Virus record (IMG/VR): IMGVR_UViG_2721755720_000002
Coordinates: 1-37,615 of that record
DNA: 37,615 nt
From: a virus
Lineage: Duplodnaviria; Heunggongvirae; Uroviricota; Caudoviricetes
Direction: 5' to 3' (one strand)
The notes under the pieces are model-generated. The model ran no database searches. It saw nothing but the letters and a program-made list of their open reading frames with translations, and was not told where the DNA came from. Positions 3,398-9,500 of the stretch are shown one piece after another. How positions within the stretch are numbered: position 1 is the first letter of the stretch; the number at the start of each line of letters is the position of its first letter. The translations under genes were made by a program, and so were the position numbers.

Positions 3398-3694
3398 TCA
3401 GTCATTACTGATAGCGCCATAGCGTGAGCGGTAATTACGCAGGCGCGGGTCGATATATTCAGGGAATTGGGTATATGTGGCTTTGCGGAATGGTCGGATT
3501 GATGTCTGGTAAATTCGCTCTCGTTCTTCTTTCTCTGCAAGCCATATACAATGGCGAAATTCCTTTTCCTCTTTCGTTTCCTGCGGTAGCGACATTATCC
3601 GATCGTAGTTTTTTCTGAATTTATCCAGCACCTCCGATACGGAATTGCCGGAACAGCGGCGCGCGTCATCCGCACCATACAGAGGCGCTGGCAT
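3398..3694 (-). CDS. hypothetical protein (98 aa)
   Basis: AGGAG Shine-Dalgarno before ATG at 3694; sits directly downstream of the exonuclease gene. Confidence 0.45.
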
Positions 3695-3710: not shown

Positions 3711-4259
3711 TTATTTAGCTAACTTTTTCCAGATCGCTGAAACGTATTTGGCTTGGTGAATGGCATCATCAAGCGCGTTGTGGCGAGTTCCTTTGAATGG
3801 CATATCTCGCTTAGGGTCGAATCCTATTACCTTCCCAAGTTCGACGATTGTTCTTACGTCGCGGTCATTCCACCACTTCCACGGAACTGGCTGCCCTGTC
3901 AGCGAATAACTGTTTCGGAGAATAACGCAGTCAAATGATGCTCCATTCCCCCAAACCTGAACGAATTTGTGGTTAGCGTTCTTTATGATGAATTCAGATA
4001 ACCATGAAAGAGCCGTTGAAAGCTCCTGAGTGTTGCTGGTTAGCGATTTTCTGGCTTCTTCACTCTGTTCCAGCCACCATAAAATCGTTGAAGCGTCAGG
4101 ACGCGCTCGATATCGCATTGATGATTCAAGCGAGATATTTACCGAGAACTCTTCTCCTGTTTCTCCGGTATTCGGGTCAAAGAATACCGCCCCAATAGAA
4201 ATAACTGGCGCGTATGGCCCGTTGCCCATTGTTTCAAGGTCAACCATCAAGTGATTCAT
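3711..4259 (-). CDS. DnaQ-like (DEDDh) 3'-5' exonuclease
   Basis: 182 aa; MVDLETMG and HNALDDA motifs typical of DEDD exonucleases; AAGGA Shine-Dalgarno; lies next to SSB and the annealing protein. Confidence 0.7.
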   Translation of the reverse strand: MNHLMVDLETMGNGPYAPVISIGAVFFDPNTGETGEEFSVNISLESSMRYRARPDASTILWWLEQSEEARKSLTSNTQELSTALSWLSEFIIKNANHKFVQVWGNGASFDCVILRNSYSLTGQPVPWKWWNDRDVRTIVELGKVIGFDPKRDMPFKGTRHNALDDAIHQAKYVSAIWKKLAK

Positions 4260-4267
4260 GTAAGTCC

Positions 4268-4783
4268 TTAAATTGCGTGAATAGCGTGACGAGGGAAGGG
4301 GAGAGTTACTGGTGCAAAGGGGATATCGTCGTCAAAATCCATAGGTGGTTCGCTGTGATTTCCCTGCTGCTGAGGTTGCTGTCTTTGTTGCTGACCATTA
4401 TTTCGCTGAGGTGAAGACTGTTCATTGCCTCCTTGCTTGCCACCAAGCATTTGCATGGTTCCACCAACGCCCACGATGACTTCGGTAGTGAACCGATCCT
4501 GTCCGCTTTGATCCTGCCATTTTCTTGTCCGCAATTTGCCTTCAAGATAAACCTCAGAGCCTTTTCGCAGATATTCGCTGGCAATTTCTTCCAGTTTCCC
4601 GCTCATTACCACGCGGTGCCACTCCGTCTGCTCCTTTTGCTCTCCAGTTTTCTTATCACGCCATTGTTCTGACGTAGCAACGGTAAGGTTTGCAAATGCC
4701 GTTCCTGATGGTGAATATCTGATTTCTGGATCATGCCCAAGGCGACCAATAATGATCACCTTATTTACGCCTCTGCTTGCCAT
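4268..4783 (-). CDS. ssb: single-stranded DNA-binding protein with a 15-residue extension after the DDDIPF tip
   Basis: OB-fold N-terminus [22 protein letters not shown], Gly/Gln-rich linker, [11 protein letters not shown] followed by [15 protein letters not shown] before the TAA. Confidence 0.85.
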
Positions 4784-5491
4784 TTATGCCGCCTGTTTTA
4801 GTTCGTTAACTCTGATGTTCATTACCTGAACGCATTTAGCCTGCGCCTCCTCGTTGCCAGCCATTAATTGCCAGTCATGCTGATAACGCTCGATGAGTTT
4901 TTTCTTGTCAGTTTCTGTCGCTGCATAATCGCTGAAGTCTTTCAGGATTTGTTCGCAGTCAACCGATGGATATTTCTGGTTGGTATTTTCTGGTGATGGT
5001 TTGTTATCTGATGCTGGGATTGCCCAGCCCGGCAGCGATGGAGGGAGCCAGTAAAATCCTGTTCCATCCTTGAGTTTTGCCCTGTGCCATCCCTGCTTTT
5101 TGTCGAGAGATGTTTGTGCGAAACCTTCCTCAAGGTTATACAGATACCGACCGATTCCCCATTGAACGGCAGCGCGCTTCATTGCACCGGAACGACCACC
5201 TTTGACGGCTTCTACCTGCGTGTTTTCAGCAGCATCCCATTTGGTTACCCATTCGGAATCAATCTTTATCGATATGCCGCATTCAACGCCGCCGTTGTTG
5301 GGAATATCGCGGTATTCATTGCGCCATCCTGCTTTGCCGCAAACATCGTCCAGGCGTTTCATGATTGCCCGGTTCGTGACATAAGCCAGCACCATAGCCC
5401 ACACTTTGCCATCGCGTGTTTTACCGCTTTGCTGTATTCGCCATTCGATATCTTCAGGGCTGAATGGCTCATCGAATTTATTCAAATCCAT
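4784..5491 (-). CDS. Rad52-family (Sak/DUF1071-like) single-strand annealing protein
   Basis: 235 aa; KRAAVQWGIGRYLYNL motif recalled as Rad52/22-type; GAGGTGA Shine-Dalgarno; its stop directly abuts the ssb ATG. Confidence 0.55.
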   Translation of the reverse strand: MDLNKFDEPFSPEDIEWRIQQSGKTRDGKVWAMVLAYVTNRAIMKRLDDVCGKAGWRNEYRDIPNNGGVECGISIKIDSEWVTKWDAAENTQVEAVKGGRSGAMKRAAVQWGIGRYLYNLEEGFAQTSLDKKQGWHRAKLKDGTGFYWLPPSLPGWAIPASDNKPSPENTNQKYPSVDCEQILKDFSDYAATETDKKKLIERYQHDWQLMAGNEEAQAKCVQVMNIRVNELKQAA

Positions 5492-5578
5492 AATTCACCT
5501 CAGAATGGACATGGCCCAAGGAAATAACGCTGATTTAATACTTCAGTCTTTGCCGCATTTAAAAATACGCGAACACCT

Positions 5579-5750
5579 TCACGATCTCCCTTCTGGCGAT
5601 ACATTAACGCCTGCTGCGTGTACATGCGTCTCTGTAACTTGCTCTCCTTCACTGTGGTTGCAAGTGACATGAATATCTCCTTCGTTACCGATTAATTCTT
5701 TCATCTGACGAATGAATTCTTCGTCTGACCAGTTATCTGTAAAACTCATG
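5579..5750 (-). CDS. small acidic hypothetical protein (56 aa), in the position of lambda kil
   Basis: ATG at 5750 overlaps the TGA of the cIII-like gene (ATGA); product MSFTDNWSDEEFIRQMKELIG... Confidence 0.35.
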
Positions 5751-5916
5751 GACGGCCTTGTTGTTTCAAAATATCCCAAAGCTTTTCGAGCAAACTTTTC
5801 ATTCTTGGTTGTTTAAAGTCTGCTCCGGTTAAAATATTTTTTCGTGAATGCTGTACCGATAAAATCGGGTTGAAAGGGCGAACCGATGCCGCCCCTGCAA
5901 TAGCGAACTGTTGCAT
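5746..5916 (-). CDS. cIII: CIII-like small protein (56 aa), not in the ORF track
   Basis: AAGGAG then ATG at 5916; MQQFAIAGAASVRPFNPILSVQHSRKNILTGADFKQPRMKSLLEKLWDILKQQGRP; N-terminus and KSLLEKLWDIL region resemble lambda CIII from memory; syntenic position. Confidence 0.5.
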   Translation of the reverse strand: MQQFAIAGAASVRPFNPILSVQHSRKNILTGADFKQPRMKSLLEKLWDILKQQGRP

Positions 5917-5991
5917 AGGATGCTCCTTCTGTTTGATTGCATAACGAAAACGCCTCTAGTGAAGCGTTATTGGTATGCGGTAAAGCCGCGC

Positions 5992-6303
5992 TTAGGCGGC
6001 TGATGTTTCTTCTTTCAGGCTTTCGAGATATTTACGTGGGTCGTCGCAACATTGGCATTCGCTGTACCAATCCACCCAGCGATCAGTAAGCCCCATATCT
6101 GATAAATCTTCATCGGTAAGGCTCTCATCCCACATCTCAAGGCCGTTAGCATTGCAGTAATCAGGCTTGATGTTGTTGTCATACTGAAAGGCGTCATAAT
6201 CAGCCAGTGCGTCCATCAGGCGAACACCCTCTTCAACACTTGCCACTTCTACAATGAACGGCTTCATAGGTACTTGCGGGATATGCCAGACACGTAATTT
6301 CAT
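5992..6303 (-). CDS. acidic hypothetical early protein with ECQCC motif (103 aa)
   Basis: GGAGGA Shine-Dalgarno before ATG at 6303; highly Asp/Glu-rich product. Confidence 0.5.
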   Translation of the reverse strand: MKLRVWHIPQVPMKPFIVEVASVEEGVRLMDALADYDAFQYDNNIKPDYCNANGLEMWDESLTDEDLSDMGLTDRWVDWYSECQCCDDPRKYLESLKEETSAA

Positions 6304-6315
6304 ATTTCCTCCGTC

Positions 6316-6342
6316 AAAAAAATGCCCTCACACTGGAGGGCA
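6316..6342 (-). terminator. intrinsic terminator on the minus strand (tL-like) between the moron and downstream early genes
   Basis: Minus-strand hairpin TGCCCTC-CAGTGT-GAGGGCA followed by seven U. Confidence 0.55.
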
Positions 6343-6445
6343 AAGAAGATTTCCAATAATCAGAACAAGTCGGCTCCTGTTTAGTTACGAGCGACATTGC
6401 TCCGTGTATTCACTCGTTGGAATGAATACACAGTGCTTATTTGTA

Positions 6446-6916
6446 CTAATAAAATACCCAATTTTCTGTTTCTTGGTTGTGTCCAAAGTTATATTCAATA
6501 TCTGGTGTTGATGTATCAATATTCTTCATCCCATCAACAAGAGTTGATACAACAGCCAAATCTTGTTTGATTCTCATTAAATGGTATTTCTTCCGGCGCA
6601 ATAAACTTTCAATGGCAAGTTTCTTCGTTGGGAATGCAAAAGATCTTTCTGCATTTTTTGCTACTTTCTTAATTGCATATCTATTTCTCTTTTGTTTCCA
6701 TTCCTGTAACCACTGATTTGGTGCTGGTTTAAAATTAACAATCCAATGCGCAGGAACCAACCATGCATAATGCTCTGTCTGATGAAAAGCTATATATTGA
6801 AGTGCGAATATTTTGATTCCATCTTCTTCAACTGTCGCCTGGAATCTCCAGAAAACAGGCATTCCATCATGTTCAGTTTCTGATTCAGGAAAAGGTACGC
6901 TCCATGATTTTGTCAT
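6446..6916 (-). CDS. hypothetical AT-rich moron protein (156 aa) immediately downstream of N
   Basis: GAGGTGAG Shine-Dalgarno then ATG at 6916; coding region visibly AT-richer than its neighbours; followed by an intrinsic terminator; no motif recognised. Confidence 0.55.
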   Translation of the reverse strand: MTKSWSVPFPESETEHDGMPVFWRFQATVEEDGIKIFALQYIAFHQTEHYAWLVPAHWIVNFKPAPNQWLQEWKQKRNRYAIKKVAKNAERSFAFPTKKLAIESLLRRKKYHLMRIKQDLAVVSTLVDGMKNIDTSTPDIEYNFGHNQETENWVFY

Positions 6917-6924
6917 ATCTCACC

Positions 6925-7251
6925 TCAAATAAGTGGCTTGCTGCCTAATTTCATTTTCTGGCGACCAACACAAGTCACACCCATTTCACTGCGTGGCTTG
7001 CTGTACCATGTGCGCTGATTCTTGCGCTCAATACGCTGCAGGTTGCTTTCAATCTGTTCGTGGTATTCAGCCAGCACCGTAAGGTCTATCGGATTCAGTG
7101 CGCTTTCTACTCGTGATTTCGGTTTGCGATTCAGCGAGAGAATAGGGCGGTTAACTGGTTTTGCGCTTACCCCAACCAACAGGGGATTTGCTGCTTTCCA
7201 TTGAGCCTGTTTCTCTGCGCGACGTTCGCGGCGGCGTGTTTGTGCATCCAT
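6925..7251 (-). CDS. N: antitermination protein N (lambda type, 108 aa)
   Basis: Product MDAQTRRRERRAEKQAQWKAANPLLVGVSAKPVNRPILSLNRKPKSRVESALNPIDLTVLAEY... is near-identical to lambda N as recalled; nutL lies upstream. Confidence 0.9.
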   Translation of the reverse strand: MDAQTRRRERRAEKQAQWKAANPLLVGVSAKPVNRPILSLNRKPKSRVESALNPIDLTVLAEYHEQIESNLQRIERKNQRTWYSKPRSEMGVTCVGRQKMKLGSKPLI

Positions 7252-7361
7252 CTGGATTCTCCTGTCAGTTAGCTTTGAGTAACGCGCCGTGATGCTTATC
7301 TCCACGGTTGCTGTCTTGCAGCTGCATTTCGCGCTACTCAAAGCTTTCTGCTTTGAATGCT

Positions 7362-7392
7362 GCCCTTCTTCAGGGCTTAATTTTTAAGAGCC
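7362..7392 (-). promoter_or_regulatory. nutL: nutL (boxA plus boxB)
   Basis: Minus strand reads GCTCTTAAAAATTAAGCCCTGAAGAAGGGCA: boxA-like GCTCTTA and boxB hairpin GCCCTGAAGAAGGGC, matching lambda nutL. Confidence 0.8.
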
Positions 7393-7431
7393 TCACCTTC
7401 ATGGTGGTCAGTGCGTCCTGCTGATGGCTTA

Positions 7432-7504
7432 AAATTACAAGAAAGATTGTATGTTGTAAACAAGAAATATTGTAAAAAGGGGCGTGAAAAACAAAATCCA
7501 TTGT
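7432..7504 (-). promoter_or_regulatory. oL/pL: three 434-type 14-bp operators (7437-7450, 7460-7473, 7491-7504) with a candidate leftward promoter (-35 TTTACA 7460-7455, -10 TAATTT 7437-7432)
   Basis: ACAAGAAAGATTGT, ACAAGAAATATTGT and ACAAAATCCATTGT all fit ACAA-N6-TTGT; promoter hexamers with 17-bp spacing overlap them. Confidence 0.7.
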
Positions 7505-7553
7505 TTTTAAATGAAAAATAGTTTGTTTTTGGTTATCGAGATTGAGGTGGGGA

Positions 7554-8906
<1,353 letters not shown>

Positions 8907-8914
8907 GACATTTC

Positions 8915-8946
8915 CGCTCTTACACATCCCAGCCCTGAAAAAGGGC
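8915..8946 (+). promoter_or_regulatory. nutR: nutR (boxA CGCTCTTA 8915-8922, boxB 8932-8946)
   Basis: CGCTCTTACACATCCCAGCCCTGAAAAAGGGC, essentially the lambda nutR sequence. Confidence 0.85.
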
Positions 8947-9025
8947 ATCAAATTAAACCACACCTATGGTGTATGCATTTATTTGCATACATTCAATCAA
9001 TTGTTATCTAAGGAAATACTTACAT

Positions 9026-9304
9026 ATGCAACTTACAAGTACTCGCAAGAAAGCGAATGCAATTACAAGCAACATCCTGAATCGAATTGCTGTACGTGGT
9101 CAGCGAAAGGTTGCCGACGCGTTAGGGATTAATGAATCGCAAATTTCGCGATGGAAAGACAGTTTCATCCCAAAAATGGGAATGCTTCTTGCTGTTCTTG
9201 AATGGGGTGTTGAAGACGAGGAGTTGGCGGAACTGGCTAAGAAAGTAGCCAGAATGCTGACAAAAGAAAAAGCCCCGAAGAACGGCGAATTCTTCGAGGC
9301 CTGA
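9026..9304 (+). CDS. cII: CII-like lysogeny activator (92 aa)
   Basis: AAGGA Shine-Dalgarno then ATG at 9026; ...ESQISRWKDSFIPKMGMLLAVLEWGVEDEELAELAKKVARMLT parallels lambda CII. Confidence 0.8.
   Translation: MQLTSTRKKANAITSNILNRIAVRGQRKVADALGINESQISRWKDSFIPKMGMLLAVLEWGVEDEELAELAKKVARMLTKEKAPKNGEFFEA
9059..9072 (-). promoter_or_regulatory. candidate CII-binding site of a pRE-like promoter (TTGC-N6-TTGC on the minus strand)
   Basis: Forward GCAATTACAAGCAA gives TTGCTTGTAATTGC on the minus strand, inside the 5' part of cII as in lambda. Confidence 0.35.
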
Positions 9305-9338
9305 TGTAGAAAGACTGGATCAATCCACAGGAGTAATT

Positions 9339-9500
9339 ATGCCAAAACGTCGTAAGAAATACCAGGAAAAAGAAGAGATTCGACACCCTGATTCACCTGA
9401 GGGATTAGTGGTAGCCGCAGCAAATAACAGGGCGTTCGCAGAGCGCCTTGTTGGTGTTTACAGACTAGCCAAAGCAGGAGTGAAACATGGGCGTCGTTAA
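9339..9500 (+). CDS. small basic hypothetical protein (53 aa) between cII and O, overlapping the O start; not in the ORF track
   Basis: AGGAG then 5 nt then ATG at 9339; [53 protein letters not shown]. Confidence 0.3.
   Translation: MPKRRKKYQEKEEIRHPDSPEGLVVAAANNRAFAERLVGVYRLAKAGVKHGRR

Follow-up and report, generated by a model that had tools for sequence, protein, structure and literature searches.

The window analysed here, a stretch of DNA that spans positions 1 to 37,615 (37,615 nucleotides) of the IMG/VR virus record IMGVR_UViG_2721755720_000002, represents an almost complete P22-like/lambdoid phage genome, in which the early-left (PL-type) operon is encoded on the minus strand. This study deals with four small genes of that operon, encoding a homologue of P22 gp17 and three proteins of 56 amino acids (aa) each, termed cIII56, acid56 and alt56. 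They lie in a region that is bounded by N (6925–7341) and by the gene for a Rad52-type annealing protein (4784–5491), and in which every open reading frame (ORF) is on the minus strand. An original prediction, made from the letters of the sequence, had described here a cluster of small acidic early proteins, namely a 103-aa protein with an ECQCC motif, an unannotated CIII-like ORF and, coupled to it, an acidic ORF in the position of lambda kil; the acidic products were proposed as DNA mimics that inhibit host nucleases or restriction systems. These three ORFs are real, as their family matches (E 4e-55 in Pfam, E 1e-22 and 4e-40 in PHROG) lie far beyond chance, and the placement between N and the recombination genes, in the accessory or host-takeover segment of the early-left operon, was borne out as well. 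The description as acidic holds for gp17 (isoelectric point, pI, 4.12) and acid56 (pI 4.58) but fails for cIII56, which is strongly basic (pI 11.05), and a fourth gene, alt56, had been missed. The region contains the following features:

5992–6303, minus strand: gp17 homologue, 103 aa (Pfam PF17420, phrog_1510)
5949–5968, minus strand: terminator-like hairpin between gp17 and cIII56
5746–5916, minus strand: cIII56, 56-aa basic variant of the CIII family (phrog_550, hhalign)
5579–5749, minus strand: acid56, 56-aa acidic ORF (phrog_2123; Arf-like N-terminal motif NWSDEEFIRQMKELIG)
5500–5670, minus strand: alt56, 56-aa basic ORF (phrog_1723; Shine-Dalgarno (SD) sequence AAGGAGatattcATG)

We consider it probable that gp17 acts in counter-exclusion, that cIII56 is a lysogeny factor, and that acid56, as an Arf-like protein, forms together with alt56 a pair that precedes the annealing-protein gene. 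The region would be what a P22/HK97-type early-left operon normally carries as its accessory segment, here with four small genes that fall into three kinds by function and would be transcribed after N-mediated read-through of a terminator at 6342–6323. PADLOC gave no relevant match for any of the small ORFs, NCBIfam no meaningful match for gp17, cIII56, acid56 or alt56, and sequence and profile searches of the PDB with gp17, acid56 and alt56 were empty.

The gp17 homologue and the question of DNA mimicry

The gp17 homologue (net charge -14) is preceded by the SD sequence GGAGG (GGAGGaaatATG) and matches Pfam PF17420 with its residues 1–98 over positions 1–98 of 98 (E 4.4e-55; 184.3 bits at a cut-off of 25) and phrog_1510 with E 1.7e-57. 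It is 88% identical to P22 gp17, likewise a strongly acidic protein of 103 aa, which is encoded in the PL operon between an N-type antiterminator and cIII and is followed by a terminator. The Pfam family carries the name "superinfection exclusion gene product 17", and gene 17 is annotated in the P22 record with "allows growth on phage Fels2 lysogen". In one report, the exclusion exerted by Fels-2 is counteracted by P22 gp17, which is necessary for this effect (PMC6486243); literature searches for a mechanism yielded solely the genetic phenotype from 1989, cited second-hand. The anti-defence context that had been proposed for the region thus gains support from the family of the 103-aa protein, for which genetics has defined a role in counter-defence, and, as judged by sequence, its identity and genetic role are already known. 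Altogether 244 homologues were found, some of them in virulent phages (vB_Eco_AL25, St11Ph5, a Pectobacterium myovirus and Mooltan), as would be expected of a mobile counter-defence gene. The protein of phage mEp021 that bears the name Gp17 was discarded as a relative, being an unrelated, N-like protein.

An alignment of 77 homologues reveals twelve invariant residues, P9, Q10, L33, Y36, D37, F39, Q40, K46, D48, Y49, W76 and W79, all of which are present in the protein encoded in the window. The ECQCC motif does exist in this protein but is not a feature of the family, since each of its three cysteines occurs in at most 6% of the aligned homologues; P22 gp17 and the H-19B protein read ECQCY instead. 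The motif was therefore rejected as a metal or redox site. The AlphaFold (AF2) model of gp17 is a compact alpha/beta structure and was predicted with confidence (predicted local distance difference test score, pLDDT, 93).

Does the acidity of gp17 and/or acid56 reflect DNA mimicry, in that these proteins would sit where host nucleases or restriction enzymes, such as type I restriction-modification systems or RecBCD, bind DNA? The charge of the gp17 family is conserved (net -8 to -19, pI 4.05–4.40 among the 77 members), a property shared with mimics of the Ocr, ArdA and Gam type; acid56 (net charge -8) and P22 Arf are both acidic, and for the latter DNA mimicry was raised as a speculation in one paper (PMC9836394). 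The genes also lie in a part of the operon that is rich in anti-defence functions, with ral at the equivalent position in other phages. However, the invariant residues of gp17 are aromatic or polar rather than acidic, and the most acidic loop (residues 60–75) is deleted in many of the aligned members. The sole phenotype known for gp17 is escape from prophage exclusion and not alleviation of restriction, RecBCD is already dealt with by Abc2 (3398–3694), and the tail of acid56 (residues 28–56) is not selected in its own frame. Fold and sequence searches uncovered no resemblance to known DNA mimics of the Ocr, ArdA or Gam type, so that the proposal found no support there, and we regard DNA mimicry as improbable.

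By homology with P22 gene 17, the gp17 homologue would instead allow the infecting phage to grow in the presence of a resident P2-family (Fels-2-like) prophage. Compact and acidic, it may bind a prophage-encoded exclusion factor stoichiometrically and thereby neutralise it, with the invariant aromatic and polar patch (Y36, D37, F39, Q40, K46, D48, Y49, W76, W79) as the putative binding surface. Two points weigh against this assignment. The window phage probably has E. coli or Shigella as its host, in which the prophage of relevance is not Fels-2 itself, and gp17 is, like Arf and alt56, a protein without a known biochemical mechanism. Compared with P22, a phage of Salmonella, the E. coli/Shigella-type host lineage implies that a different P2-family element would be the excluding one.

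cIII56, an atypical relative of CIII

Downstream of gp17 and the hairpin follows cIII56, which is preceded by the SD sequence AAGGAG and matches phrog_550 (E 1e-22). Profile–profile alignment with canonical CIII (hhalign) gave a probability of 90.7% and E 1.2e-6 over 47 aligned columns, and the CIII-like ORF is thereby confirmed as genuinely related to CIII. An exhaustive HMMER search yielded a small family of 19 representatives that are 47–100% identical and that are collinear with CIII of lambda, P22, Sf6 and HK022/H-19B along the elements M..AIAG, S..R..L and K.L..L.Q.G.P. The exception to this collinearity is a conserved insertion of ten residues, TGADFKQPRM in cIII56. With lambda, P22 and HK022 CIII (PF02061) the protein shares M..AIAG, the central S..R..L, the C-terminal K.L..L(N/K)Q.G.P, the gene slot, the basic charge and a strong SD sequence; it differs from them in the T(G/S)A(D/S)F..P.. 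insertion, in falling below the Pfam and NCBIfam thresholds and in never preceding kil. It also stands outside both CIII classes, lambda-type and HK022-type, listed by Kobiler et al. 2007 (PMC1838920). By sequence comparison cIII56 is a genuine but atypical relative of CIII that is missed by curated models, and the Prokaryotic Genome Annotation Pipeline (PGAP) labels it "hypothetical protein".

Among 80 related IMG/VR loci, cIII56 occurs in 18, which never contain kil, while canonical cIII occurs in 59, which always do; the remaining three are truncated. Compared with the window, H-19B carries cIII+kil in place of 5750–5922. The swap between cIII56 and cIII+kil is a cassette exchange of the sort that characterises lambdoid mosaicism, and cIII56 may be seen as a distinct CIII sub-type, with the amphipathic helix split by an insertion, that serves as the cassette alternative to cIII+kil.

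Since a CII-like activator is encoded at 8966–9304, the default expectation for cIII56 is inhibition of FtsH, with the insertion as caveat: like lambda CIII, the protein would inhibit FtsH competitively and by this stabilise the CII-type activator. Several findings argue against so simple a transfer of function. Residues 14–37 of lambda CIII, which form an amphipathic helix, are essential and sufficient for activity (PMC1838920), and the insertion, which contains proline, lies inside the equivalent of this stretch, so that FtsH inhibition by cIII56 may be altered. No Pfam match was obtained for cIII56 at E≤1 (of 11 relatives, just two reached E 0.068) and no NCBIfam match at E≤0.1. The structure prediction, confident for gp17, is of low confidence here (mean pLDDT 61.8) and places helices at residues 17–22, 25–30 and 42–51, i.e., a broken helix.

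These observations could be read as functional divergence, in which the insertion disrupts the FtsH-inhibiting helix and cIII56 has, for example, come to cover partially for the missing kil or to act on another host target. The proline-containing insertion in the essential region is conserved, the CIII models of both curated databases failed, the modelled helix is broken, and the mutual exclusion with kil is strict across the 77 informative loci. This exclusion is, however, equally explained by cassette-wise mosaic exchange, no similarity to Kil is present, and the model is of low confidence. As cIII56 moreover is collinear with CIII over its full length, including the N-terminal AIAG and the C-terminal L..LNQ.G.P, and sits in the unchanged operon slot of a genome that encodes a CII partner, we consider divergence unlikely and keep FtsH inhibition as the default expectation.

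The overlapping genes acid56 and alt56

The ATG of acid56 overlaps the stop codon of cIII56 as ATGA (ccATGAg), and a weak SD sequence, AAGG, lies 8 nt upstream. A TTG start at 5779, which would give a 66-aa product, is an artefact of mechanical ORF listing; it is the ATG at 5749 that is conserved as the start. The protein matches phrog_2123 (E 4e-40). The originally described acidic ORF thus exists and is ATGA-coupled to cIII56, but its assignment to the kil position did not hold: in the kil carriers H-19B, Sf6 and HK022 acid56 is found downstream of kil, and the window has no kil. Where kil is present, acid56 begins at the kil stop codon; in P22 the genes run 17 – c3 – kil – arf – erf, which puts acid56 in the slot of arf. 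Be it kil or cIII56 that lies upstream, the ATGA junction is retained. With Kil of lambda and HK022 (PF06301, an FtsZ inhibitor) acid56 has in common just an approximate location, downstream of cIII; the two differ in charge, Kil being basic and acid56 acidic, and no ORF in the window is similar to Kil. Pfam Lambda_Kil gave no match among the small ORFs, and tblastn of the HK022/H-19B and P22 Kil proteins against the whole window reached E 1.1 at best. Kil homology of acid56 or alt56 was rejected on these grounds.

The N-terminus of acid56 resembles that of P22 Arf. Both (Arf as phrog_2445) carry [FW][SN]D[DE]EFI..[ML]....I[GE], with WSDEEFI..M..IG as the shared motif, as is seen when the N-termini of P22 Arf (MQHEFSDEEFIALIS...), of a Klebsiella Arf homologue (..EKWNDDEFIQLMSDAIGE..) and of acid56 (..DNWSDEEFIRQMKELIGNE...) are compared. 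A match of acid56 to the Arf family phrog_2445 is weak (E 0.042, residues 5–26), and hhalign against an alignment of three Arf sequences gave a probability of 91% and E 1e-6 over 19 columns only. The Klebsiella Arf homologue matches phrog_2123 in turn (E 0.0074), so that the PHROG matches are reciprocal but weak; tblastn with P22 Arf did not reach acid56. Like P22 Arf, acid56 is small, acidic, translationally coupled and located between kil/cIII and the annealing-protein gene. Unlike it, acid56 lacks the C-terminal half AERQNPIIGWDEFAG and has instead an unconstrained tail that overlaps alt56, for which P22 has no equivalent; here alt56 is additionally placed between acid56 and the annealing gene. 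In this motif acid56 resembles P22 Arf, an accessory recombination function that stimulates Erf-mediated recombination, and it may do Arf's job for the Rad52-type annealing protein encoded downstream.

The basic alt56 (pI 10.1) possesses the best SD sequence of the group, AAGGAG, overlaps acid56 by 92 nt (5579–5670) in a different frame, and has its stop codon inside the SD sequence of the annealing-protein gene. It matches phrog_1723 with E 4.5e-34. Which of the two frames is under selection was examined by the distribution of variable sites over codon positions. The 80 related IMG/VR loci all encode an identical alt56 and are biased for frame tests inside this gene; the overlap analysis was therefore repeated on independently chosen loci. 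In these, variable sites in the overlap fall at alt56 codon positions 3/1/2 with counts of 12/5/2, and 17 of the 19 changes are non-synonymous for acid56, which identifies alt56 as the constrained frame. In the 78 nt of acid56 outside the overlap the counts at acid56 codon positions 3/1/2 are 14/4/3 (chi-square p=0.005), and 6/0/0 in the independently chosen loci. Both acid56 and alt56 are real genes; function in acid56 resides in the Arf-like N-terminus, the tail being carried along by alt56.

A number of findings run counter to acid56 as an Arf-like gene. What it has in common with Arf extends over about 19 residues, the conserved C-terminal half of Arf (..AERQNP[IV]I[GS]WDEFAG..) is absent, and the molecular function of Arf itself is described as unknown (PMC12315714; PMC9836394). 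PGAP does not call acid56, and locus L089 has alt56 without it. In L090, a metagenome contig from the European Nucleotide Archive, ATA takes the place of the acid56 start ATG next to an intact alt56, either as a natural knockout of acid56 or as a start codon of non-canonical type; a further locus, L091, came up with the same alt56 protein.

One may accordingly ask if acid56 is non-functional and its frame persists through the overlap with alt56 together with a short conserved leader, gp17, cIII56 and alt56 alone being expressed. PGAP, which annotates the alt56 copies in E. coli prophages, and metagenome gene callers annotate alt56 rather than acid56; the weak SD sequence, the mostly non-synonymous substitutions in the overlap, the ATA codon, the locus with alt56 alone, and a variable stop that leads to 52, 56, 60 or 66 aa are further arguments in this direction. 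Against them stand the third-position bias of the first 26, non-overlapping codons in both sets of loci, the retention of the ATGA junction behind two unrelated upstream genes, and an N-terminal motif in common with P22 Arf, for which there is genetic proof, and with the Klebsiella Arf homologue. Length changes among homologues, too, are in frame: P0149 and P0156 show tandem 21-nt duplications in the region of the Arf-like motif, which repeat EFIRQMK two and three times. Finally, the frame is open even in a highly diverged module of the Salmonella phage SPN9CC. We therefore hold a non-functional acid56 to be very unlikely and retain the reading of acid56 as an Arf-like gene.

In SPN9CC (L005, 1501–1777) a mosaic breakpoint was observed that falls within the coding sequence of acid56, some 54 nt past its ATG. 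Both frames are open in the diverged module downstream of it and encode a 60-aa protein of phrog_17766 and a 62-aa protein of phrog_1723 (E 1.4e-31 for the latter match). BLASTP of alt56 against SPN9CC gp13 produced no alignment, so that the link runs via phrog_1723 only. The acid56/alt56 pair precedes annealing proteins of the Erf type or the Rad52 type in the 80 related loci. In this reading alt56 is a real, selected gene in a module with acid56, directly before the annealing-protein gene, and the annealing protein at 4784–5491 is the likely functional partner of the pair.

Operon surroundings, distribution and significance

The four genes are embedded in the following surroundings:

8966–9304: CII-like activator (phrog_191, E 4e-37)
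7955–8587, minus strand: repressor
6925–7341, minus strand: N (Pfam N36, E 2.5e-26)
6446–6916, minus strand: unknown ORF of 156 aa, orf156 (phrog_1636, E 5e-112)
6323–6342, minus strand: strong intrinsic terminator, TGCCCTC-cagtgt-GAGGGCA followed by T7 (7 pairs, 5 of them GC)
4784–5491, minus strand: Rad52/Rad22-type single-strand annealing protein (Pfam PF04098, E 5e-26)
4268–4783, minus strand: single-stranded DNA-binding protein (SSB)
3711–4259, minus strand: Rv2179c-like 3'-5' exonuclease
3398–3694, minus strand: Abc2 (anti-RecBCD)

The order N – orf156 – terminator – 17 – terminator – cIII56 is alike in P22 and H-19B. The terminator at 6342–6323 sits directly upstream of the gp17 ribosome-binding site and is presumably read through upon N antitermination; the hairpin at 5949–5968 corresponds in place to the terminator annotated at the end of gene 17 in P22. 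An Rfam scan of 5000–9500 retrieved zero RNA families.

Further observations concern the neighbouring genes. The recombination module consists here of Abc2, the Rv2179c-like exonuclease, SSB and the Rad52/Rad22-type annealing protein, while related loci contain Erf, an HNH endonuclease or other partners instead. The 156-aa ORF (6446–6916) has no Pfam or NCBIfam match and in several related loci again precedes gp17 or cIII. Between orf156 and gp17, upstream of the terminator at 6342–6323, positions 6404–6431 hold a perfect inverted repeat of 9 bp, GTGTATTCA(10 nt)TGAATACAC, which may form an RNA hairpin or be bound by a protein. Furthermore, an ORF of about 134 aa at 7554–7958 (minus strand, ATG at 7958, phrog_2651) has a signal-peptide-like N-terminus and overlaps the repressor stop codon with its start as ATGA, in a rex-like position; it would be co-expressed with the repressor in a lysogen, which makes its product a candidate for an exclusion or moron protein expressed by the prophage.

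Parts of the region were matched by 397 phage records and by 2,265 of 5,426 complete E. coli genomes, 15 of which have one place that covers at least 80% of the query. Among the prophages listed, four have the exact gene arrangement, with 95.6–99% identity over 99–100% of the query. Phages that include H-19B, HK022, HK75 and the mEp phages encode acid56 with 100% identity, in ORFs that bear differing annotations or none. Sf6 gp30 and HK542 gp31 are its counterparts, and Sf6 gp29 is that of alt56; gp30 and gp29 are annotated as similar to HK97 gp42.1 and gp42, respectively. These are the same genes, with 88–100% DNA identity and the same two-frame overlap, and HK022 and H-19B contain unannotated copies of the pair. 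Database labels reading "recombinase" on pairs of the Sf6/HK542 type are PHROG-derived names that give function by name only. The region is already known, near-identical genes being present in H-19B, HK022, HK542, Sf6 and E. coli prophages, and it contains no new sequence.

As a discovery the result is small; the largest of the proteins falls into a curated Pfam family whose phenotype is known. Its value is corrective: the gene assigned to the kil position becomes Arf-like, an overlapping gene is added, ECQCC is dropped as a lead, and the CIII-like ORF turns out to be real but atypical. The proteins gp17, Arf and alt56, all very common, would be sensible and inexpensive choices in screens for counter-defence and recombineering-accessory functions.

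A more far-reaching interpretation, which we judge rather unlikely but worth stating, combines cIII56 as a third CIII class that is exchanged against cIII+kil with the acid56/alt56 pair as a bipartite accessory system of annealing proteins. If true, cIII56 would be a split-helix CIII class with a T-G-A-D-F-x-x-P insertion and possibly an altered or additional target. The gp17 fold, which is without a characterised relative, could moreover define a new class of inhibitors directed against the defences of P2-family prophages. The pair would be kept in two versions, with alt56-type proteins that lack BLASTP similarity to each other, and the selected parts would be the N-terminal ~25 residues of acid56 and the body of alt56; as such, it could constitute a bipartite accessory system for annealing proteins of the Erf type or the Rad52 type.

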